Below are positions 49,712 through 61,351 of a stretch of DNA of 64,000 nucleotides, in pieces. The notes beneath the pieces are model-generated. The model had not been told where the DNA came from. It made no database searches and worked only from the letters and a program-made list of their open reading frames with translations. Position numbers and translations under genes: made by a program. The stretch's first letter is position 1. Every line of letters begins with the position of its first letter. The stretch covers positions 896,001 through 960,000 of the forward strand of contig CAWBOS010000010.1 of NCBI GenBank assembly GCA_963790475.1, in the 5' to 3' direction. This DNA is from an uncultured delta proteobacterium (GTDB lineage: Bacteria > Desulfobacterota > RBG-13-43-22).

Positions 49712-50242
49712 CTAGTCGACGGCCTGAGGAACAAGGCAGAACGTTGTAATCTGGTCGAAGCCGCTGTGACCACCGCCCTCTGTTCCCGAGACGACAACGG
49801 CATCGGCCCCAGCCTGCTCGGCTTTCCTGGCGTGTTTTACAGTGGAGCATACGTGAATCACCTTGATACCGGCTCTTTTTAGGATAGGGGTGTAAACTGC
49901 CGGGTTACCTTGAGAAACGATAGCCACCGGTATCCGCTCACTGAGTCCGACTTTCAGGCATTGATCACTGAAGTCCCGGTCCAGTCCGGGGACACCGACT
50001 ACGAAATTAACCACAAAAAGTTTATCCGTTAATTTTCGAAATTTTTTAATCTGTTCCCTGAGTCGTTCTCCTGTTTCAAGGACATCGGTAGTTACTGTTT
50101 GAAACCCGGCATTCGGCCCAATGGTGCCGAGCGCTCCGGCTTCGGAGACGGCAGCTGCGAGATCGGCATCCGTGATCCAAGCCATAGGCGCCAGCACAAT
50201 GGGGTAGGTGATCCCTAACATTTCAGTGATTCTGGTTTTCAT
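49712..50242 (-). pseudogene. Nitronate monooxygenase/FabK-like flavoprotein, 3'-truncated
   Basis: MKTRITEMLGITYPIVLAPM...GTEGGGH; stops at LVPQAVD, about half the usual length. Confidence 0.8.
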
Positions 50243-50457: not shown

Positions 50458-52442
50458 GCCCATCTTCCGCAGTTTGGAGAAAAAATCAAGAAAAACGTGA
50501 TGAATTTTTAGGAATTGTTAAATGATTTCAAATCCTGATCTTTGAAAATTGGATGTAGTGAAGACCACCCCCTTGCCAGGTGCTGTGGGAACGGAGATAA
50601 TGGGGTTATGTATCTCCGGCGTGCAACCAAAAAGAAAGGTGGAGCGGAGTACGAGAGCTGGCTTTTAGTTGAGTCGGTCCGTACTGCCCGAGGGCCCCGT
50701 CAGCGAGTAGTGGCGACGATAGGGAAACTTCCTGGCCTTGATCGGGAAGAGCGGATAGGTTGGGAGGAGATCGGACGGATTCTTTCCGGAAAGCCTCTAC
50801 CTGGACCTGAACTGTTTGAGCAGGGGGAAGACCCCCCATCTTGGGCCACGGTCAATATCCATGGCGTAAGCGTCGAGCGACTCAGAGGCTTCGGCGATGT
50901 CTATTTGGGGTTGCTTTTGTGGAACAAACTGGGGCTTGCCAGGTTCTGCCGAGATCATATTCCTTCCAACCGGGAAGAGATTCCTTGGTCGATCATGGCG
51001 TCTATTTTAGTTCTTGGACGCTTTTGCGCCCCATCGTCGGAATTACAGATGGCCGAGTTTTGGTATGGCCAGACGGCCTTAGACGATCTGCTGGGAGTGG
51101 CCGACTATAAGATCAATGAGGATCGGCTTTATCGTGCCCTGGATGCCTTGCTTCCCCACAAGGATGCCTTAAGCCGTCACCTTCAGGAGCGTTATGGGGA
51201 ACTGTTCGGCAGTAGCTTTGATTTTTTGTTTTATGACATAACCTCCACCTATTTTGAGGGGACCGCCAAGGGCAATGCCCAGGCCAAGAGGGGTTACAGC
51301 CGGGACAGTCGTCCAGATTGTCCCCAGGTCTGCATCGGCCTGGTGGCCACCCGAGAGGGCTTTCCCATAGCCTTTGAGGTTTTTGACGGCAATCGACCGG
51401 ATGTTACGACGACCCAAGAGATGGTTCAGATGATGGAGGCCAAATACGGCCAAGCCAACCGGATCTGGGTTATGGATCGCGGCATGGTGAGTGAGGAGAA
51501 TCTGGAGTTTATGCGCAAAGTCGGTGCCCGCTATTTGGTCGGCACCCCAAAAGTGATGCTGAAGAAGTTTGAGCAGCAGCTTTTCGAACAGAACTGGGAA
51601 GCGGTCCAACCTGATGTTGAGGTCAAGCTCTGTTGCTCGCCGGAAGGAACGGATGAAATCTTTGTCCTGTGCCGGTCTCAAGGCCGGAAGGAGAAAGAAA
51701 ACGCCATTCTAAACCACTTTTTGACCCGACTGGAAAGCCAACTGGATCACCTGGCCCGCCAGGCCGAAACCGGCAAGCTCCGAGACAAGCAGAAAGTCGA
51801 GCGGAGAATAGGGCGACTGCTGGAACAAAATAAACGTGCGGCCTCGTTGTTCAATATTACAGTCATAGAGACCGGTACCGGAAAAGACGCACCGCTTTCC
51901 CTAGAAGTCAAGAAGAACGAACAACGGCAACAGTGGGCCTTGGAGACCGGCGGTAGCTACATCCTGCGCACCAACTGGACCGAAAGTGACCCGAAAGTCC
52001 TATGGAATACCTACATCCAACTGACGGAAGTGGAAGATTCATTCCGTACCGAGAAACATGATCTGGGAATGCGACCGATCTTCCATCAAAAACAGGAACG
52101 GACCCAGGCTCATATCCTGGTCTGCTTCTTGGCGCTGACTATGTGGCGAACGCTCCAGCAATGGATGAAAGCCTCGGGACTCGGTACCGCCCCAAGAAAG
52201 CTGTTGGAGGAGTTGCGGGAATTGAAATCTTTGGATGTGCTACTACCGGCGCGGGAGAGAACCCTCCGGCTCAGAATGGTGGCTACTCCCTCAAAGGAAC
52301 TCAAAGTGCTGCTTCAGAGATTGAAAATTCTGCTCCCCAACAAACCAAAAATTATTGAAAATGTAGTGAAGAAAATGCCCTAATTCTTGTCGTAACTATT
52401 TGATATCGCGTCTTCCATGCTTTCTAACTGCGGAAGATGGGC
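50458..52442 (+). mobile_element. IS1634-family insertion sequence
   Basis: Terminal IRs GCCCATCTTCCGCAGTT / AACTGCGGAAGATGGGC, flanked by TA (or TAG) duplication. Confidence 0.9.
50608..52383 (+). CDS. IS1634-family DDE transposase
   Basis: YDITSTYFEG, RGYSRD.RPD, VMDRGM, VEDSFR..K..L.MRPIFH. Confidence 0.93.
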   Translation: MYLRRATKKKGGAEYESWLLVESVRTARGPRQRVVATIGKLPGLDREERIGWEEIGRILSGKPLPGPELFEQGEDPPSWATVNIHGVSVERLRGFGDVYLGLLLWNKLGLARFCRDHIPSNREEIPWSIMASILVLGRFCAPSSELQMAEFWYGQTALDDLLGVADYKINEDRLYRALDALLPHKDALSRHLQERYGELFGSSFDFLFYDITSTYFEGTAKGNAQAKRGYSRDSRPDCPQVCIGLVATREGFPIAFEVFDGNRPDVTTTQEMVQMMEAKYGQANRIWVMDRGMVSEENLEFMRKVGARYLVGTPKVMLKKFEQQLFEQNWEAVQPDVEVKLCCSPEGTDEIFVLCRSQGRKEKENAILNHFLTRLESQLDHLARQAETGKLRDKQKVERRIGRLLEQNKRAASLFNITVIETGTGKDAPLSLEVKKNEQRQQWALETGGSYILRTNWTESDPKVLWNTYIQLTEVEDSFRTEKHDLGMRPIFHQKQERTQAHILVCFLALTMWRTLQQWMKASGLGTAPRKLLEELRELKSLDVLLPARERTLRLRMVATPSKELKVLLQRLKILLPNKPKIIENVVKKMP

Positions 52443-53079
52443 TAGACTTAAGGGGGCAAGTTTTAACAGTCGTTCGGCCCATTCTTTGGCTGTATCCATA
52501 AGCTTTTCATTGGCCACCACTTTGTTGACCAGACCGACTTCATAGGCCTTTTGAGCGTTAAACCAGGTCCCCAACAAGTAGAATTCCATACTTTGCTTAA
52601 AGGTCATATAAGGACGGTATTCAATAATTCCGCCTACCCTGCCTGCTCTTCCCTCAGGGAAGCCGAATTGCGCATCTTCGGCTGCGACCGTAAGGTCGCA
52701 CCCCCGAATGGCCAGACCGGAACCGGCTCCCATGGCCAATCCATGTACAGCGCCAATGATTGGTTTTAACACCTGGGTTCCGTTTGCCGGATAGCACTTA
52801 CGAACCGTCCCTGGCTCCAAGGCTCCCGGAGTTATATCCGCACCACCACAAAAAGCCTTTCCGGCACCACTAAGGATAGCCACGCGGGCCTCAGGGTCTT
52901 GCTCAAAACGATCCCAGGATTGACTCAGCGCAGCCACCATTTCATTGTTGATAGCATTCAATTTTTCGGGACGATTCAGGGTAATATAGGAAATCTGATT
53001 TCTTACTTCATAAAGAATCACATCGGCCATACCCTTCTCCTTCTTCTTCCGACCTTATTCCAAAATCGAGGTAAACCTC

Positions 53080-54102
53080 CTATACCGGCCAGGGTATCTC
53101 GCCCAGGGCCATTCGGCACAAATCGGTGATAAAAATTTTCGGAAGCCCGACCCTTGCAGTGGGCCGGCGCATCACAGCATCACAGATCGGGCATATGGTT
53201 ATCAGGGCCTCGGCCCCGGAATCTAAGGCATCCTGGACATTCTTGGTCTGCATATCCATAGCCAGGTCTTTATTGACGCCGATAGCGGGGCCACTGCAGC
53301 ACACGGCATCCAGGCCGTCATACCGTCTGGAAACGTGCTCCGCACCGATCAGGCCGAAGATTTCATCCAACCAGATATCCTGCTCCCGTATCCAGCGCAC
53401 CGCACAATTTGGCTGGTAGGCCACTTTCTTATTTAACCTGGTAAGGTCTTTTTGGTTTTTTTGGAGATAATCCCGCAGGTATTCGAACAGATGGTAATAC
53501 TTGAAAGGGACGGGTATTCCAAGTTCCTTGGCCTTCACATGGGCCAGGACATATCCCTCATTATGGATATAGACGATCTCCTTCTCCAATTCCGCTAATT
53601 TTTCAATCACCTGGCGGCCAAACCGCTCGGCGAAACTCTCTCCACCCATATGCACCATGCCGACCAGGGACATGTATTGCCCCCCTCGTACCACGGTCAG
53701 TCCTTTGAATAACCGACTCTCCACAGTCCCTTCTGGAAATTGCTTGAATTCAAAGCCATCAAAAGAAAGCGCCGGCTTATCCGGATCTCCTGCTATCACC
53801 TGACTATCGGTTTGGCCTTCCTCAAATCTCTTGGCCCGATCGGAGAGCATCGGTTTGGCATTGAGGACTAAGGGACTGGTTCCGATCTTCTCCTGCATTT
53901 TAAAAATCAGATTAGCCGGATCCGCGCCGGTGGGGCAGTTGTCAAAACAGGTGTTACAGGTGATGCAATTGTTCAGGATATCCGCGGGCTTCCCCTCCAT
54001 GAGCCGTTTTATTTCGCTTACCGCCTTGTCTTTATCATAGTTGACATAACGACATTTTACCAGACAATCACCGCATAAATCACATTTTGAAGCATTCCAC
54101 AT
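53080..54102 (-). CDS. Fe-S protein (2 ferredoxin motifs + CCG-type domain)
   Basis: CDLCGDCLVKC, CITCNTCFDNCP, YQPNC, VCCSG, ICPIC. Confidence 0.85.
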   Translation of the reverse strand: MWNASKCDLCGDCLVKCRYVNYDKDKAVSEIKRLMEGKPADILNNCITCNTCFDNCPTGADPANLIFKMQEKIGTSPLVLNAKPMLSDRAKRFEEGQTDSQVIAGDPDKPALSFDGFEFKQFPEGTVESRLFKGLTVVRGGQYMSLVGMVHMGGESFAERFGRQVIEKLAELEKEIVYIHNEGYVLAHVKAKELGIPVPFKYYHLFEYLRDYLQKNQKDLTRLNKKVAYQPNCAVRWIREQDIWLDEIFGLIGAEHVSRRYDGLDAVCCSGPAIGVNKDLAMDMQTKNVQDALDSGAEALITICPICDAVMRRPTARVGLPKIFITDLCRMALGEIPWPV

Positions 54103-54138: not shown

Positions 54139-55011
54139 TCAACTGGGACCCGTCTCAATTCCTATCTGGGCTAAGTATTCCATAAATCTCAAGCTCAATT
54201 CTTCAGGGCTTCCTTCAAATAATTCCTTGTTTTTTTCAGCCAACCCCCCCGACATAATCTGCCACATCCGGTCCTCGGCTGAAAGACTGGTATCGGGCGT
54301 AAAAATTCGTTTAGGCCTTGGCTTGGGTATTTTGATATTCAGCAATTCTACCTTGGTCTGTCCTAGGGTGTCTTCCGGCGATATGTTCAGACCTTTTTCC
54401 TTTATTCTGTTGATTTCGGTCTTCAGGGCGGATAAGAGGCAGGGCAGGGTGGAGTATCGCGGTTCATTCAAGCTTTCCTCTAGAGTGAGCAGGGCCGGAA
54501 GGGGAACCACGATCCTTTCCCTGTAGCCCTTTTCCAATTTTTTTTCCAACACCAGCTGCTTCTTCTCAATAAGCAAATCGAGTTTGGTTACCCGGGAAAC
54601 GATCGGCAGGTTCAGCCGGTCCGCTATCACGTATCCGGTCTGACCTCCAAAGTTGTCCATCGATCCGTGTCCGCAGAGGATGAGGTCTATGTCCATTTTA
54701 CGACACCAAGCCGCCAGGAGAACACCAATCGCATAGCCGTCCGGATTATTAACGGAGGATTCAATAATTGAGGCCTCATCAGCCCCGAGGGATAAACAAT
54801 GCCGTATTAAATTTTCTGCGGAAGGAGAGGATAGGGCGATCAGAAAGACCTTGCCCGATCCATTCGTCTCTTTCAAGCTCACCGCCGCTTCGACGGCGAC
54901 CAGATCGGAGGGGTGAACCGTATAAATAAGATCTTCCGGGTCGATCCGTCCGTCGTCGAAGCTGATGATATTCGGATCTGGAAAAAAATGGAGGCAGACA
55001 ATGATATTCAT
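54139..55011 (-). CDS. fixA: Electron transfer flavoprotein beta subunit
   Basis: AVEAAVSLKE, LGADEA, LILCG..S.D...GQTG, NEPRY. Confidence 0.88.
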   Translation of the reverse strand: MNIIVCLHFFPDPNIISFDDGRIDPEDLIYTVHPSDLVAVEAAVSLKETNGSGKVFLIALSSPSAENLIRHCLSLGADEASIIESSVNNPDGYAIGVLLAAWCRKMDIDLILCGHGSMDNFGGQTGYVIADRLNLPIVSRVTKLDLLIEKKQLVLEKKLEKGYRERIVVPLPALLTLEESLNEPRYSTLPCLLSALKTEINRIKEKGLNISPEDTLGQTKVELLNIKIPKPRPKRIFTPDTSLSAEDRMWQIMSGGLAEKNKELFEGSPEELSLRFMEYLAQIGIETGPS

Positions 55012-55122
55012 TTATAAGCTTTCAGCGATCAGCATTCAGACGTCAGGAAAACAACAGATAGCTCCTTGCTCATTACTGGGTGCTCGAAAAAACGAGAAAC
55101 GAGTAATCAGTAACGAAACTTT

Positions 55123-55803
55123 CTATGGCATTTTCGCTCCCAGCTCCTTTCTGGCTTGTTTGGCTTCATCCGACCTGAGCCAGGAGATATAATCGGGACG
55201 TTTCCGGGCGCGAAAAATAAGGTTGCTGAACAGATCCGCCCAGAAGGCCAGAGGTTTTAAGGTTTTTTCAAACTCGGGATTAAATGAAGCCCACCCACGA
55301 ACATGTTCTTCCGACCGGAAGAGGTTCATGCCCGCTCAACGATACGGTCTGGTCTCAAGGGTCCCGCCGATCTCACTGTAGGTATAACCAACAATGGGCT
55401 CAGGCTGCACCGAAAGGATGTCCTCGTCCTTCATTTCAATAACGATGGGTTCTCCGCAGTCCAGACAAATGGCATCAAGCCGTACATGCTTTCCGGGGAA
55501 GAGCCAGCGAACCGCCAGCGCTTCGAATCCTCACTGGGCGAACCATTTTGGTTCACCGTCTATGGTGATGCGGTATTGGGTGGGTTGGTTGTTGAAGGGA
55601 GGGAAAGAGGCAATCCAGTCCGTCTGGGGGTGGACCCAACCGGGCACCCCGGAAGTCATCAGGTCATGGACCAATTGACGCCCTTCTTCCATCCCGATCC
55701 CCAGGTCCTTGGCCAGTTCGGTATGATGGGGGGCCTGACCGGTTTTGATGAAACGTTGCATGATGTTGTAAAACGCCCGATCCATTAAAGCGAGATCTGC
55801 CAT
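55123..55803 (-). CDS. MerB-like organometallic lyase-fold selenoprotein with two putative Sec residues (226 aa)
   Basis: ORFs 55531..55803 and 55123..55329 share one frame, separated only by UGA at 55533-55531 (WFAQ-U-GFEAL) and 55338-55336 (RPYR-U-AGMNLFRSEEH). The 64 intervening codons are open and include CLDCGEP. AGGAGG RBS; a SECIS-like hairpin follows each UGA. Confidence 0.85.
55297..55335 (-). promoter_or_regulatory. Bacterial SECIS-like hairpin after second UGA
   Basis: GCGGGCAUG-AACC-UCUUCC-GGUC-GGAAGA-A-CAUGUUCGU: lower stem, internal loop, upper stem and G-containing apical loop. Confidence 0.8.
55498..55524 (-). promoter_or_regulatory. Bacterial SECIS-like hairpin after first UGA
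   Basis: GAAG-C-GCUGGCG-GUU-CGCUGGC-U-CUUC, beginning 7 nt after the UGA. Confidence 0.7.
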
Positions 55804-55828
55804 GTTGGTATCCTCCTTTTATAAAAAT

Positions 55829-55989
55829 AAGGGTTTAAGGTGCAAGGTACAGGGTTTAAAGTAAAAACCAGTGGTAACTTGGAGTACTGGAGTGATGGAG
55901 TACCGGAGTATTGGTCTGAAAAACCCGGTACTTCAAATTTTCAATATACCAATATCCTGTGTTCCAACACTCCCATACTCCATTACTCG
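55829..55989. repeat. Composite 7-mer and 8-mer (GGAGTAYT / ATACTCC) inverted tandem repeats
   Basis: Seen directly between fixX and the MerB-like gene. Confidence 0.7.
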
Positions 55990-55998
55990 CCTCCCGAT

Positions 55999-56268
55999 CT
56001 ACCCGTATCGCAGACATACTCCGTATCCCCCGCGGGGATAACTCCATTCAATAGCTTGGTTTTCGCAGGTGATGCGGCAGGCACCGCATTCCACACAACC
56101 TTGCCAGGAAAAAACAATTTCGCCCTGGCTCAGTACATAATTCTTAACCGGGCAAACATACAGACAAGGTTGATGGACGCAGGTAGAGCAACGTGATCGG
56201 TCGATCTTAATGTGCGGAGACAGATCGACCTTGAATCGTACTCGGGTTAATTTTTCTTCTATGTCCAT
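55999..56268 (-). CDS. fixX: Ferredoxin-like protein FixX
   Basis: CSTC...CLYVCP, GCVECGAC, WSYPRGGYGV. Confidence 0.9.
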   Translation of the reverse strand: MDIEEKLTRVRFKVDLSPHIKIDRSRCSTCVHQPCLYVCPVKNYVLSQGEIVFSWQGCVECGACRITCENQAIEWSYPRGGYGVCLRYG

Positions 56269-57614
56269 AGAATTGCCCGTACCCCCTGAAGGATATCTTT
56301 AAACAATCGAGACTTAGGAATTTTCCCTTTGGTGGTCTCCCGCATTATGGATAGAATATTTTTTCTCGGCTCCCCATTGACACGATAAAAACGGTGGGCT
56401 ATTTCACAGGCCAAATCAGGGTACGCTTTATACAACCTGGGATTGGAAAGGAATTCCGGGACACGGCGAAAGGTTTTAAGGTCTTGGAGTACAAAGCTCT
56501 TCTCCAGCAATTCCAGGTAATAAGCCATTTGCCGTTTAGAAAAATCTCTGTTCTTCTTGGCCCGGATGACGGTTTTGGCCGCCGCCAGACCGGAGGCAAT
56601 GGCTAAATTCATCCCTTCCAGTGTAATACCTGTCGAGCAGACGAAGCCGGCCGCGTCCCCGGAAAAGAGGACTCCGTTCCCATACAGTTTGGGCAGGGCT
56701 TTATAACCGCCTTCAGGAATCAGATGCCCGGAATATTCTTTCAGGATTGCGTTTTTTATTTTGTTTTCAATAAAGGGCTGGGTTTTAAATTTTTCCATAA
56801 GGTCGGCAATGGACAATTTCTTTTTTTGCAGGGCCTCCAAATTGGCCACGACGCCAATCGAAAGGCTTGAAAGGTTGGTATAAAGAAATCCGCCTCCTTC
56901 CACTCCCTGAGTACATTCACCCAGAAAAAGATGGGCCAGCCCTTCTTTGGGTTTCAGCTCGAAACGTTGGTTAATGATTTCTTCAGGAAGGGTCAAGACC
57001 TCCTTGGCCGCGACCGAGATATTCGAAGGGGACAAGGTCTTTCTAAAGCCGGACTTTTCAGCCAGAATCGAATTCACCCCGTCGGCCACGATAACCGCAT
57101 CCCCCAGCAGCAGGCCGTCGGACCTCGAGGTTTTGACCCCGGTTACCCTATTGTCCTCCAGCACCAGGTCAACCACGGTCGTTTCCGGAACGAGCAAGGC
57201 CCCTGCTTCCCTGGCCTTTTCGGCGTACCATCGGTCGAACCTGGATCTTAAGAGGGTAAAACCGTTATAGGGTTCTCTACCGAACCGATTATCCTGAAAG
57301 GTCGTGGAGAGGGATGAATCGGAAGTGAGAATCGTGGTCTGATATTTTGTAATAAAGCGTTCAACCGGGGCCTGGGTCCAATAATCTGGAATCAATTCGT
57401 TTAAGGCCGCGGAATAATGTAATACGCCGCCGAACATATTTTTCTGACCAGGTTCTTCAGCTCGTTCGAACAAAACACATTTCAGACCGGCCCGGGCCGC
57501 GGCCAGGGAGGCTGTAGTGCCAGCCGGACCGGCTCCCACCACAATTAAATCATATTTATCTTGCACCAGACTATCCCTTCGGCCGCTTTCCTGATCGGCG
57601 ACCGAGTCGGTCAT
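56259..57614 (-). CDS. fixC: FAD-dependent ETF:quinone oxidoreductase-like FixC
   Basis: VVGAGPAG, GQKNMFGG, GGGFLYTN, EYSGHLIPEGG, GDAAG. Confidence 0.92.
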   Translation of the reverse strand: MTDSVADQESGRRDSLVQDKYDLIVVGAGPAGTTASLAAARAGLKCVLFERAEEPGQKNMFGGVLHYSAALNELIPDYWTQAPVERFITKYQTTILTSDSSLSTTFQDNRFGREPYNGFTLLRSRFDRWYAEKAREAGALLVPETTVVDLVLEDNRVTGVKTSRSDGLLLGDAVIVADGVNSILAEKSGFRKTLSPSNISVAAKEVLTLPEEIINQRFELKPKEGLAHLFLGECTQGVEGGGFLYTNLSSLSIGVVANLEALQKKKLSIADLMEKFKTQPFIENKIKNAILKEYSGHLIPEGGYKALPKLYGNGVLFSGDAAGFVCSTGITLEGMNLAIASGLAAAKTVIRAKKNRDFSKRQMAYYLELLEKSFVLQDLKTFRRVPEFLSNPRLYKAYPDLACEIAHRFYRVNGEPRKNILSIMRETTKGKIPKSRLFKDILQGVRAILWT

Positions 57615-58581
57615 TGATCACCCTTATTAGTTCTACGGCGTCTCCCACCAGGCCCATATCCGAATATTTGAAGATATCCGCCGAGCGGTCTTTGTTGATG
57701 GCCACGATGGCCTTTGAATCTTTCATCCCCAGGACATGATAGATGGACCCTGATATTCCGCAGGCCACATAAAGATCAGGGGTCACTGTCGTACCGGTTT
57801 GTCCGACCAGGCATTTTCGTTCCGCCAGTTCGGCATCGACGGCCCCGAGGGAGGCCCCGGCCACCCCCCCTAACTTCCTGGCCAGCTCCCTGACCAGTTC
57901 GAAATTTTCCCGGCTGCCCAGCCCGCGCCCTCCGGAGATGATGATTTCAGCCTCGTCCAGGGTGATGGTTTCAGGGTCGGCCTTTATCTTGTCTGTGATT
58001 CGAAAATGCCTTTCCTCCTCGTTCAAACCGGGGTTGAAAACTTCCGCTATGATTTCCTTTTTGGGCCTGGTCCGTTTCTTATTAAAGGCGCCGGGGATAA
58101 TCGTAGCCATCTGAGGGGTCCCGTGGCGGCAAATAAAGGTGCCGGCTATCCGGCCGCCAAAGATAAGCCTGGTCTGCAGTAACAAACCCTCGTCGTTCAG
58201 AGAAAGATCAAGGCAGTCCATGATCAGCCCGGTTTTCAGTCTTGCCGCCAGCCGCCCGGCCAGGTCATTCCCGAAAAAAGTGGCTCCAAATAGAATAAAG
58301 CCCGGCCTTTTCTCAGCGCATATTCCGGAAAGGGACCGGGCATAAAGTTCCGGATCTTCGTTCACCAGCAGGGGATGTTCTAGAAAAAAGATCCGGTCCA
58401 CCCCGTAATCGGCCATGCCTTTAAGGGCCTCCCGGTTGGTTTCTCCGATTATCAAGGCCTGGAGTTCGCTGTTAAGTTTGGAGGCCAGATCCCTCCCTTT
58501 GTTCAGCACTTCCCGGGAGACCTCGGCAGCTTCTCCATTGCGCCACTCGACAAAAACCATGACGGATTTGTTTGAGTTCAC
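57571..58581 (-). CDS. fixB: Electron transfer flavoprotein alpha subunit
   Basis: ISGGRGLG, VGQTG..V.PDLYVACGISG, AINKD..ADIF. Confidence 0.92.
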   Translation of the reverse strand: MNSNKSVMVFVEWRNGEAAEVSREVLNKGRDLASKLNSELQALIIGETNREALKGMADYGVDRIFFLEHPLLVNEDPELYARSLSGICAEKRPGFILFGATFFGNDLAGRLAARLKTGLIMDCLDLSLNDEGLLLQTRLIFGGRIAGTFICRHGTPQMATIIPGAFNKKRTRPKKEIIAEVFNPGLNEEERHFRITDKIKADPETITLDEAEIIISGGRGLGSRENFELVRELARKLGGVAGASLGAVDAELAERKCLVGQTGTTVTPDLYVACGISGSIYHVLGMKDSKAIVAINKDRSADIFKYSDMGLVGDAVELIRVINDRLGRRSGKRPKG

Positions 58582-58798: not shown

Positions 58799-60754
58799 TC
58801 ACAATTTCCTGGCCGCCCGAGCGGCATCCCAGATCGAGTCCTGCAGTTTGCGCGGGGAATGGCAATGACCGATGTCATAGAGCTCTTTGATCTCACCCTT
58901 TAATGACCGGTATAAGGCGTTGTCCGATTTCCCGATATGGGCGTAAACAACCGTATCCACTCCTTCGATGCGTCTTTCTTCACCCGAGAGCACATGGCCG
59001 GCGATTACTGTATTCTCCCTGATCTCCTTGACCCTCGTCAGGGGGGTTATGACCACACCTTTCCTGGCCATTCGGGTATAAACAATGGCCAGGGTAGTGG
59101 CATCCAATTCACCGCCGGCATAAAGGGTGCGGATCAAAACCTCCACCTTTTTACCCCTGTCGGCCAAGAATTCGGCTGTGCCCAGGGCCTCTTCGTGGTG
59201 TTCATCGGCGATTATGACTACCTTATCTCCGACTTCGGCTTTCTCACTAAGCACCTTGCGAACCGTGACCAGGTTGGCACTCTGGTCCGTCTTTATACTG
59301 GGCAAAATTTCCACGGATCCCGTAGCCACGATAACCGCGTCGGGATTTTTTTCTCGGACCATCGCGGGGGTGACTGTCGTCCCCAGAACCACTTCCACCC
59401 CAAGCAGTTTCATCTGGTTTGAATAGTATCGGATGGCTTCGGCAAAATCGATTCGGCCTGGGATTTTGGTGGCGATATTCAACTGCCCACCAAGGGTTTC
59501 TTCCTTATCATAAAGCGTAACCTGATGGCCTCTCAGAGCGGCCACCCTGGCCGCCTCCAGTCCGGCCCCGCCGCCGCCGATGACCATTACCCTTTTCATT
59601 TTGGTTGCCGGGACAATGCCCATTCGCCCCTCTCTTCCCGCCTCGGGGTTGAGCGAGCAGCTTATGGGCCAATTTTTCTGGTAATACCCTATACAGGCCT
59701 GGTTGCAACCGATACATTTTCGGATCTCATCCAGCCGGCCTTCCTTGGCTTTTAGAGGCCATTGCGGGTCGCAGATCAGTGCCCTGGCCATGCCTATAAA
59801 GTCGGCCTGGTTATTCTCCAGAATCTGTTCGGCCTGAATGGGGTCGTTTATCCGTCCGTGACAGATGACCGGGATGTTGACCACTTCCTTGACTCCGACT
59901 GCCAGGTGAACAAAGCATCCCAGGGGGAAATACATGGGAGGAACGTGCCCGGAAAGGCCGGCGCAGACGCTCAAGTAGTCGATGTTACCGGTCTCCTCCA
60001 GCTTGGAGGCAATGACCCTGGCATCATCCAGGGTTAGTCCCCGGTTAATCAGCTCATCGGCCACCAATCTCATACCAACTGCGAAATCAGGACCCACCGA
60101 GGCCCGGACGGCCTCAAGGATTTCCCGGTGTATCTTCATCCGATTCTCCAGGCTGCCACCGTACTCGTCCTGCCGTCGGTTGGAAAGAGGGGACAGGAAG
60201 GAGACCAGAAGCATCCCCGCACCGACCGTGGACGAGATTTCTACCCCGTCAAACCCGACACTCTGCAGCCTCTTGGCTGCGTCGGCATAAGCCGACACCA
60301 CCTGCTGGATATGGTCGATTTCCATCTCATAGGGCGTGGAGTATTCAGGGGCCATCAACCCTCCGGGAAACTGTATCGGTGACGGCGCAAATCCCGTACC
60401 CCCGGTCAAGCTCCCATCGATTCTCGGTCCGGCATGCAGAAGCTGCCCAAATAACTTTGTTCCCTGATCATGCAAGGCCGTGGCTAGTCCCTCATAGGCG
60501 GGAAGAGAGCGGTCGTTCTGTATGGCCATAAAACCTCCGGCCGTACTCATCGCTCCCACCGCGTTCTGGCCTAATATGATTAAACCCACGCCGCCCTTAG
60601 CCCTGGCCAGGAAATATTGCAAGGCCCTTTCATTCGGTCCTTGATTTATCGGCCAGTATAACGGGACATGAGCGGAAAAAACGACCCGGTTCGGGATGGT
60701 CACATTGTGAATTTTCATGGGGGTGAATAGATACTTGAATTCTTGCGTTGCCAT
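58799..60754 (-). CDS. NADH:flavin oxidoreductase (OYE TIM barrel + 4Fe-4S + FAD domain; BaiCD/2,4-dienoyl-CoA reductase-like)
   Basis: RAKGGVGLI, FLSPLSNRRQDEYGGSLENR, CIGCNQAC, IGGGGAGLEAA. Confidence 0.9.
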   Translation of the reverse strand: MATQEFKYLFTPMKIHNVTIPNRVVFSAHVPLYWPINQGPNERALQYFLARAKGGVGLIILGQNAVGAMSTAGGFMAIQNDRSLPAYEGLATALHDQGTKLFGQLLHAGPRIDGSLTGGTGFAPSPIQFPGGLMAPEYSTPYEMEIDHIQQVVSAYADAAKRLQSVGFDGVEISSTVGAGMLLVSFLSPLSNRRQDEYGGSLENRMKIHREILEAVRASVGPDFAVGMRLVADELINRGLTLDDARVIASKLEETGNIDYLSVCAGLSGHVPPMYFPLGCFVHLAVGVKEVVNIPVICHGRINDPIQAEQILENNQADFIGMARALICDPQWPLKAKEGRLDEIRKCIGCNQACIGYYQKNWPISCSLNPEAGREGRMGIVPATKMKRVMVIGGGGAGLEAARVAALRGHQVTLYDKEETLGGQLNIATKIPGRIDFAEAIRYYSNQMKLLGVEVVLGTTVTPAMVREKNPDAVIVATGSVEILPSIKTDQSANLVTVRKVLSEKAEVGDKVVIIADEHHEEALGTAEFLADRGKKVEVLIRTLYAGGELDATTLAIVYTRMARKGVVITPLTRVKEIRENTVIAGHVLSGEERRIEGVDTVVYAHIGKSDNALYRSLKGEIKELYDIGHCHSPRKLQDSIWDAARAARKL

Positions 60755-60853: not shown

Positions 60854-61351
60854 TCACGGAATCGCTTGAACGGTCCCTGAATCGTCCTCGAAGGAAAATA
60901 ATTTTTCGATAATATAGAGGACGTATTTTTCACAGGTATCTTTTGCTCTGCCTGATTCCCGGAATTTTTGGTACGCCCCGGGAACATTAAAATCCAGACC
61001 CAAAAGGCCCCGGCAGGTGATATCGCCGAATTGCCGGGTAAAATCATCAATCAAATTCCCGGCCTGAAGGCGGATATTATTTCTGGCCTCCTTGGCCTTT
61101 TCTTTGTCCGCCAGGGAACAACGATGCCGCAGTCCCAAACAGACGGCCGATGCGGAAACAGCACCGCAGGGGGCTTGTTGACGTCCGCTGATCCCCCCAT
61201 TGAAGGGAATGGCGGCCCAAAGAAGATCTTCATTGCCCAGATCGTAGCTTTCCCACATAACTTGCAGGACCGCCGGCCCTCAGTGATATCCTTTGTGCAA
61301 AAATTCCATGGTCTTCGTTTTTGCTTCTTCGAGCGAAATTTTAGTTGGCAT
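60854..61351 (-). CDS. C-GCAxxG-C-C family redox protein with putative Sec at codon 24
   Basis: ATG 61351 (AAGGA RBS): MPTKISLEEAKTKTMEFLHKGYH-U-GPAVLQV is in frame with MWES...PCGAVS...ITCRGLL...TCEKYV. Hairpin UCCUGCA-AGUUA-UGUGGGA follows the UGA. Confidence 0.82.

Follow-up and report, generated by a model that had tools for sequence, protein, structure and literature searches.

A probable MerB-fold selenoprotein with selenocysteine at both metal-ligand positions, from an uncultured delta proteobacterium

With the standard code (table 11), two short open reading frames (ORFs) are found side by side on the reverse strand of a 64,000-nucleotide (nt) stretch of an uncultured delta proteobacterium genome (GenBank assembly GCA_963790475.1, contig CAWBOS010000010.1, positions 896,001 to 960,000; this whole stretch is called the window, and positions are given within it). 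The question raised by this locus is whether the two ORFs, 55531..55803 (90 residues) and 55123..55329 (68 residues), are separate or are parts of one gene in which TGA is read as selenocysteine (Sec, U), and what such a protein would do. An earlier reading of the DNA (the sequence-only reading) had joined them into a single 226-codon frame with UGA at codons 91 and 156, and translation with TGA=U bore this out: 55123-55803 on the reverse strand is one frame of 226 codons plus TAG, interrupted solely at those two codons. The ATG (55801-55803) is preceded, 8 nt to its 5' side, by a Shine-Dalgarno-like GGAGG read from the sequence (55812..55816, reverse strand). The first TGA (TGA1, 55531..55533) gives Sec91 and the second (TGA2, 55336..55338) gives Sec156; translation, alignment of relatives and alignment to the organomercurial lyase MerB were used to place them, and they correspond to MerB Cys96 and Cys159 respectively. 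On the evidence set out below, the gene almost certainly encodes a genuine MerB-fold selenoprotein with two selenocysteines, belonging to a family not yet catalogued.

The two TGAs were traced through relatives of the gene. When 101 related genomes were searched with read-through, 31 matches were listed, spread over 21 of the genomes. Of these matches, 26 (44-91% identity) contain exactly two in-frame TGAs; the other five comprise a weak match with a single TGA, two distant Cys forms and two fragments of the N-terminal part. An alignment was built from 23 full-length genes, the window's copy included, and two distant homologues (L033 and L034), leaving out one gene cut by a contig end (L031) and a 102-residue fragment in L046. 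Both site columns hold U in all 23 full-length genes (46-92% identity) and C in both distant homologues, and sequence conservation extends past both TGAs. With two TGAs in 26 of the 31 listed matches, and in the same two columns in the 23 aligned genes, the pattern is far above chance. It does not reflect an alternative genetic code or a general sense reading of TGA, since TGA is an ordinary stop in the window and the commonest one among its ORFs of at least 250 residues (15 of 36).

A scan of one genome per species found at least 518 stretches encoding relatives, and the best 80 loci, from Deltaproteobacteria/Binatia, Dehalococcoidia and Acidimicrobiia, were analysed (two of them lie on the same contigs as the close orthologues L041 and L042). 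These best 80 of at least 518 loci comprise 36 U/U and 44 C/U genes, with nothing else at either site: site 1 is TGA (36) or a Cys codon (44), and site 2 is TGA in all 80. In every one of the 101 family genes whose DNA was read, the Cys159-equivalent ligand at site 2 is Sec, and the Cys96 equivalent at site 1 has switched between Sec and Cys several times; a tree of the 101 genes, calculated with both sites masked, needs at least six state changes at site 1, two of them forced by well-supported branches.

Protein databases present the family in a different guise. Eighty of the 120 best database proteins carry Cys at site 1 and stop exactly before site 2; these are truncations of 154-156 residues at TGA2, and some bear the name 'organomercurial lyase' or 'Alkylmercury lyase'. 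The rest are 33 W/W, 3 C/C, 1 C/W, 1 G/END and 2 that are unscorable at site 2, the three C/C proteins (P0004, P0039 and P0042) being full-length homologues with 48-59% identity. Tryptophan at the two sites had been named in the sequence-only reading as a finding that would speak against selenocysteine; it does appear in the 33 listed W/W proteins, and the objection proved superficial, since one of them matches locus L067 at 92% identity and both of its tryptophans align with TGA in the DNA of that locus. The W/W proteins are therefore most likely gene calls made with a code in which TGA is Trp. Of the 150 hits listed in a search of representative proteins, 48 stop at query residues 89-91 and 8 at 154-156, while 6 start at 159; a gene cut apart at two TGAs leaves just such a pattern. 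The homologues carry Sec or Cys at the two sites and are not routinely separate proteins.

The TGAs themselves were compared with independently assembled sequence. A contig from another run, X5 record 14 (about 94% identical, with 37 differences over 611 bases), spans both TGAs and has no listed difference on either, four differences not being displayed, and X1 record 1 is identical across TGA2; both comparisons use assembled contigs in place of raw reads, and the best-matching holder could be the very sample from which the genome came. The largest share of the sampled words found in any sequencing run was 0.28; every run consisted of contigs, and none of the holders listed was an RNA data set. 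Many unrelated contigs match just the approximately 34 bases of the second hairpin described next.

Each TGA is followed by its own hairpin resembling a selenocysteine insertion sequence (SECIS), the second capped by GGUC, as had been claimed from the sequence; both hairpins were found to be conserved, and the first tracks the presence of TGA1. SECIS 1 (55498..55524, reverse strand) begins 9 nt after TGA1 and consists of a 6-bp stem (GCUGGC/GCUGGC) with the loop GGUUC and three lower pairs. The family form has nine pairs and the loop GGUYN, and its six core pairs are unbroken in 23/23 sequences, five being invariant and the sixth being G-C in 22 and G-U in 1. SECIS 2 (55297..55335, reverse strand) is a GGUC-loop stem in which core columns 16-33 of the consensus correspond to 55306-55323 and a lower stem extends the window's copy. 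Its family consensus is 7 bp long (CUCUUCC/GGAAGAG, loop GGUC) and the window's copy has 6 bp (CUUCCG...), the outermost pair, 16-33, being broken in 4 of 23 sequences including the window's (C-A). Twenty sequences have U-A at pair 17-32 and the other 3 have G-C, a compensatory exchange that is seen in the protein as the coupled changes L161C and E166A. Third-codon-position entropy averages 1.241 bits over the gene and drops to 0.585 bits in the 11-codon zone after TGA1 and to 0.354 bits in that after TGA2, zones that rank 17 and 4, respectively, among the 215 stretches compared.

The relation between hairpin and codon was then read from the best 80 loci. The six-pair stem of SECIS 1 is intact in 35 of the 36 U/U genes and in 16 of the 44 C/U genes, which often lack the GU of the loop as well, whereas the peptide after site 1 is almost identical in the two groups. 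SECIS 2 is retained in both, with a GGTC loop in 34 of 36 U/U and 44 of 44 C/U genes (78/80 in total). The groups differ in taxonomy, so the contrast at the first hairpin is not free of phylogenetic confounding; the C/U genes that lie within U/U-rich clades keep the stem, as expected after a recent switch. No SECIS match was returned by Rfam either in the window (gathering scan) or in 55100-55830 (permissive scan), a null that says little because the bacterial SECIS models in Rfam are few.

The genes for selenocysteine synthesis and insertion, selA, selB, selC and selD, had also been in question and are all present in the genome. The selenocysteine tRNA (tRNA-Sec, selC) scores 74.3 bits and has the anticodon TCA, and selA, selB and selD match at 629, 390 and 394 bits; selD has an in-frame TGA of its own, with a GU-A-S-K site at which RNAfold gave no clean hairpin. 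Both selB and selD lie on the window's contig (C10), which matters because the genome bin has an estimated contamination of 9.68%. The intact selA is on a very short contig (G000:C20:490-1848), and a second copy (G000:C13:443305-444664) matches in four pieces, one with a TAA, and has either decayed or been misassembled.

The identification of the product as MerB-like, likewise claimed beforehand, was upheld at the level of domain and fold. The read-through product matches the Pfam MerB domain PF03243 at 62.9 bits (cut-off 27) over residues 71-185. An AlphaFold2 model calculated from 23 family sequences has a mean pLDDT (predicted local distance difference test) of 89.8 and a pTM (predicted template modelling score) of 0.86, and when it was searched against the PDB with Foldseek, ranks 1-11 were all MerB or MerB2 (E 3e-9 to 5e-6; template modelling scores 0.54-0.68), the next match having an E value of 0.075 and being limited to the N-terminal winged-helix-like part. 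HMMER alignment to MerB chains pairs U91 with Cys96, E94 with Asp99, C113 with Cys117 and U156 with Cys159 (numbering counted from the alignment), in support of the proposal that U91-G-F-E94 maps to C96xxD99 and U156 to C159; the closeness of U91, E94 and U156 in space is taken from homology to MerB and not from model coordinates. E94 is kept in 23/23 aligned sequences, in 80/80 of the best loci and in 119/120 of the best database proteins. In the motif C113-x-x-C116, C113 is present in 80/80 and C116 in 70/80 of the best loci, C116 being Gly in the other 10/80.

With MerB of plasmid R831b (PDB IDs: 3F0O, 3F2F, 3F2G, 1S6L) and Bacillus MerB2 (PDB ID: 5C17) the window protein shares the fold, an aligned ligand/acid/ligand triad and the equivalent of the buried Cys117. 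It differs from canonical MerB in its identity of only about 17-18%, in the replacement of both thiols by selenols, in the change of Asp99 to Glu and in the lack of a merA/merR/merT/merP context. The signature Cys96/Asp99/Cys117/Cys159 becomes Sec91/Glu94/Cys113/Sec156, in which only the Cys117 equivalent is literally retained, and the NCBIfam equivalog models for MerB remain below their cut-offs (NF009710, 31.1 against 193 bits; NF033555, 24.1 against 200 bits). Comparison with published variants draws here, and in what follows, on excerpts of the papers cited. MerB has been defined by C96, D99, C117 and C159, with 99Ser and 117alt forms as the only variants described in the excerpt (Christakis et al., 2021, PMC8261052). 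Like those variants, the window family departs from the four-residue definition, often occurs without MerA and has an open physiological role; unlike them (Ser at residue 99 or an altered 117), it combines the Cys117 equivalent with Glu at 99 and with Sec in place of Cys96 and Cys159. The screen, as excerpted, demanded Cys at both 96 and 159 and so would probably have passed over truncated Sec forms.

The described MerB-like selenoprotein is SaoL, which the excerpted preprint gives as having one Sec, in a CU motif at 161-162, together with Cys99 and Asp102, and as encoded in a nine-gene SAO locus (Haft and Gwadz, bioRxiv 10.1101/2022.07.06.499078). Going by that excerpt, SaoL (NF040728) and the window protein have in common the PF03243 domain, a Sec at the MerB Cys159 position, database truncation at the TGA, occurrence in anaerobes outside mer operons and a physiological substrate that is open for both. 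The window protein differs in having Sec at both ligand sites, R-U (S-U or A-U in paralogues) in place of C-U, and Glu in place of Asp, and its family is found in Deltaproteobacteria/Binatia, Dehalococcoidia and Acidimicrobiia, whereas SaoL is described there mainly from Firmicutes. Against the SaoL model it scores 37.9 bits (cut-off 140), the best score anywhere in the genome being 38.4 bits. No Sao family was found among 14 window neighbours (NCBIfam scan), and no such cluster in the first 10 of 20 loci with wide flanks (Pfam). The sequence-only reading had named SaoL as an example of a MerB-like selenoprotein; with a single Sec in a CU motif, however, SaoL is a separate family and the window's family is not related to it in the narrow sense.

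Two further families, MbdU (NF045648) and the UxxU metal-binding protein (NF041115), resemble the window protein in having two Sec and in being thought to bind metal, according to their rows in Table 1 of a 2026 review (PMC13188914). The Sec pairs given there are close together (CU or UxxU) and lie in unrelated domains, in contrast to the 65 residues that separate the two Sec of the window protein, which the MerB fold would bring together, and neither model matched the window protein at E values up to 1. The same review counts 119 prokaryotic selenoprotein families and subfamilies, with SaoL (CU motif, one Sec) as the sole MerB-type entry of its Table 1, and the excerpt of a 2022 review names one 'alkylmercury lyase MerB-like protein' (PMC9312934). 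A full-text literature search, with supplementary tables and subscription-only papers outside its scope, found no description of a MerB-like protein in which two Sec, or Glu at 99, are present, and no model in NCBIfam release 20.0 claims the window protein. The family is distinct from both canonical MerB and SaoL and, within this scope, is undescribed.

The surroundings of the gene bear on its function. On the reverse strand the genes run in the order HdrD-like, DUF169, C_GCAxxG_C_C, OYE/FadH-type, EtfA, FixC, FixX, MerB-like, EtfB, Fer4+CCG and enoyl-CoA hydratase, followed by an IS1634-family transposase on the forward strand. Upstream lie an OYE/FadH-type Fe-S flavoenzyme of 651 residues (58799..60754; PF00724, 196 bits; TIGR03997, 614 bits, below its cut-off of 793), an EtfA/FixB-like electron transfer flavoprotein (ETF) alpha subunit (57571..58581; PF01012, PF00766), a FixC-like FAD-dependent oxidoreductase (56259..57614; NF007450, 370.7 bits, below its cut-off of 466) and, directly upstream across a 195-nt gap, a FixX-like ferredoxin (55999..56268; Fer4; NF011993, 51.7 bits, below its cut-off). 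Directly downstream, after a gap of 111 nt, is an EtfB/FixA-like ETF beta subunit (54139..55011), and beyond it an iron-sulfur protein with Fer4 and HdrD-like CCG domains (53080..54102; Pfam); all six genes are on the reverse strand. The claim that no mer operon is nearby was confirmed, the neighbours being Etf, Fix, OYE and HdrD-like genes, with no mer gene among the window neighbours in Pfam and NCBIfam scans. The order EtfA-FixC-FixX-MerB-like-EtfB is repeated in just two close orthologues, L041 and L042 (91% and 81% identity). Paralogues at about 50% identity have varied and mostly acyl-CoA-related neighbours (Pfam, first 10 of 20 loci with wide flanks). A homologue of the OYE/FadH-type gene (39-46% identical to the window's) adjoins the MerB-like gene in 6 of the 80 other loci, directly upstream in 5 Dehalococcoidia loci and downstream in 1 Binatia locus; with about three independent occurrences, this adjacency is a lead and not a rule.

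The window's gene is not the only one of its kind in the genome, which has four family genes and a fifth, distant MerB-like gene, all with TGA at both ligand sites (further MerB-like loci: C12:1018390-1019004, C1:164337-164942, C12:163928-164584 and C6 at about 349561-349872, L138:1915-2607). The fifth reads U-A-A-D, with Asp as in MerB, and not U-G-F-E. The genome also has an HgcA homologue (G000:C10:447409-448386) without in-frame stop, whose score of 438.6 bits is above the curated cut-off of 275 and marks the organism as a putative mercury methylator. In a related genome, the 102-residue N-terminal family fragment mentioned above (L046:6971-7279, G020:C7), in which no TGA is reached, precedes a full-length U/U gene by about 280 nt, which suggests a partial tandem duplication.

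In the established mechanism of MerB, two ligands bind the metal and a carboxylate protonates the leaving carbon, and this serves as the model for the chemistry proposed for the window protein. An organometal(loid) substrate would be chelated at its soft metal(loid) atom by the selenolates of Sec91 and Sec156, and its leaving carbon would receive a proton from Glu94, which stands in place of the proton donor Asp99, so that the carbon-metal(loid) bond would be cleaved outside any mer operon and on a substrate that need not be mercury. By analogy with MerB, such a lyase with a bis-selenolate and Glu94 is the leading reading and is regarded as plausible, if somewhat short of probable.

Several points weigh against it. 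The acid residue is Glu and not the Asp that defines MerB. A bis-selenolate should, from general chemistry, hold Hg(II) very tightly, which makes mercury turnover doubtful; no MerA above cut-off was found in the genome (best score 353.9 against 454.45 bits), nor any other conserved partner that could remove bound metal. There is no conserved operon partner of any kind, the largest neighbour family being present in 4 of 21 loci in one set and in 11 of 80 in the other, where it is an M20 peptidase mostly on the opposite strand. The electron-transfer context (EtfAB, FixCX, OYE/FadH, HdrD-like) and the acyl-CoA context fit a redox role at least equally well. Co-occurrence of HgcA with these genes seems positive over all genomes (12/17 against 25/84); within the window's own family it is 11/16 against 2/5, so it is confounded by kinship and was not counted as support. 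One of the 120 best database homologues has Gly at site 1.

A redox protein, in which Sec91 and Sec156 would form a reversible diselenide, possibly by way of C113-x-x-C116, and exchange electrons with EtfAB/FixCX and OYE/FadH-type enzymes, is considered unlikely, though several observations agree with it. The gene sits between fixX and etfB in the window and in the two close orthologues, with nothing found around it in promoter and terminator scans, which are weak evidence either way; the OYE/FadH-type flavoenzyme recurs beside it as described, directly upstream in the five Dehalococcoidia loci; the CxxC is conserved; and most prokaryotic selenoproteins have redox functions, as stated in the excerpted review (PMC13188914). 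Yet the ETF context is restricted to one genus-level lineage, the neighbours of paralogues and of members from other phyla vary, and both the fold and the Cys/acid/Cys triad belong to the metal-binding lyase type and not to the thioredoxin-like one. A pure dithiol or diselenide role would leave the invariant Glu94 unexplained; C116 is replaced in the ten loci noted above, and the equivalent of C113 in MerB is buried and structural in the excerpted account (PMC8261052).

A second alternative, which is judged about as doubtful, is that the protein binds or traffics soft metal(loid)s (e.g. Hg, Cu, Cd or As) as a selenolate chelator on a MerB scaffold, with no cleavage of a carbon-metal bond. MerB binds other metals at its mercury site and the D99S change gives copper binding, according to the excerpted sources (Haft and Gwadz preprint; PMC8261052), and the exchange of Asp for Glu together with two selenol ligands would favour very tight binding. 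The lack of a MerA to take the product, the five such genes in one genome, a number that suits stoichiometric binders, and the cataloguing of other double-Sec metal-binding proteins (MbdU and the UxxU protein, in the same Table 1 rows of PMC13188914) point the same way. Against this, the invariant acid at the proton-donor position is needed for catalysis and not obviously for binding, Sec would be a costly and unusual choice for a stoichiometric binder, and no conserved transporter or chaperone partner is nearby.

The weakest alternative is that the protein is not a selenoprotein at all, the TGAs being true stops in a decayed gene or between separate small ORFs, or being read as Trp; standard gene callers do split or shorten the gene, listed representatives end at the two sites, the W/W proteins exist and Rfam gives no SECIS family at the gene, but this reading is highly improbable, given that both TGAs are fixed in their columns across 46-92% protein identity with conservation going on downstream, that Cys is the sole alternative residue at the DNA level, that the hairpins are conserved and the first follows the presence of TGA1, that the Sec machinery is complete in a genome whose window uses TGA as an ordinary terminator, and that a W/W protein has a 92%-identical locus with TGA at those very positions.

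Returning to the organometal(loid) lyase, a bolder version of it, rated as unlikely, is that the family does chemistry that thiol MerB cannot do, independently of mer genes, acting as the methylmercury demethylase of hgcA methylators or as a C-As, C-Sn or C-Se lyase. The joint presence of hgcA and five such genes in this genome is named here in connection with an anaerobic methylmercury demethylase, and in some lineages such a lyase may couple to the OYE/FadH-type flavoenzyme and to ETF electron transfer.

SaoL, with its one Sec, was the only MerB-like selenoprotein known before, and the window gene adds a second and far more widespread branch, with an active site of unusual chemistry where both metal ligands are selenols. 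Among possible agents of organometal(loid) transformation in anoxic sediment and groundwater, the family is a concrete candidate. Its pairs of U/U and C/U genes offer a natural experiment from which to learn why Cys gives way to Sec and by what course a SECIS decays after UGA is lost. Hundreds of 'organomercurial lyase' entries are cut at residue 155 or split at 90; truncated, split and Trp-called entries of this kind distort surveys of merB in the metagenomics of mercury cycling, and the truncated and split ones cause the selenoproteomes of Dehalococcoidia, Acidimicrobiia, Binatia and Desulfobacterota-type bacteria to be under-counted.

Other features of the window were recorded in passing. 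The C_GCAxxG_C_C gene (60854-61351, reverse strand) has an in-frame TGA (61280-61282) in an H-U-G-P motif upstream of the standard 134-residue ORF, with a hairpin after it, and scores 187.6 bits against the NCBIfam HUGP/GUXX-star selenoprotein model (cut-off 325); the gene, which would end at the TGA that comes next, probably encodes a second selenoprotein. Within the gap that separates fixX from the MerB-like gene, 55880-55988 contains four 8-nt units in tandem (TGGAGTAN-like); at a distance of about 50-70 nt lies an imperfect inverted copy, with which they could form a long hairpin whose arms would be 25-28 bp long and 79-84% complementary. The IS1634-family transposase (50542-52383, forward strand, 332 bits) is flanked by reverse-strand ORFs at 49712-50242 and 52380-53030. 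One flanking ORF is an enoyl-CoA hydratase that covers only profile positions 3-201 of 251, and another, nitronate monooxygenase (NMO)-like, covers no more than the first 190 of 331 positions. The enoyl-CoA hydratase and NMO genes lie side by side in L041, the orthologous locus, where NMO has its full length. Group II intron RNA domains were matched at 476-711 and 2280-2417 on the forward strand (RF02005, 76.5 bits; RF00029, 50.7 bits).

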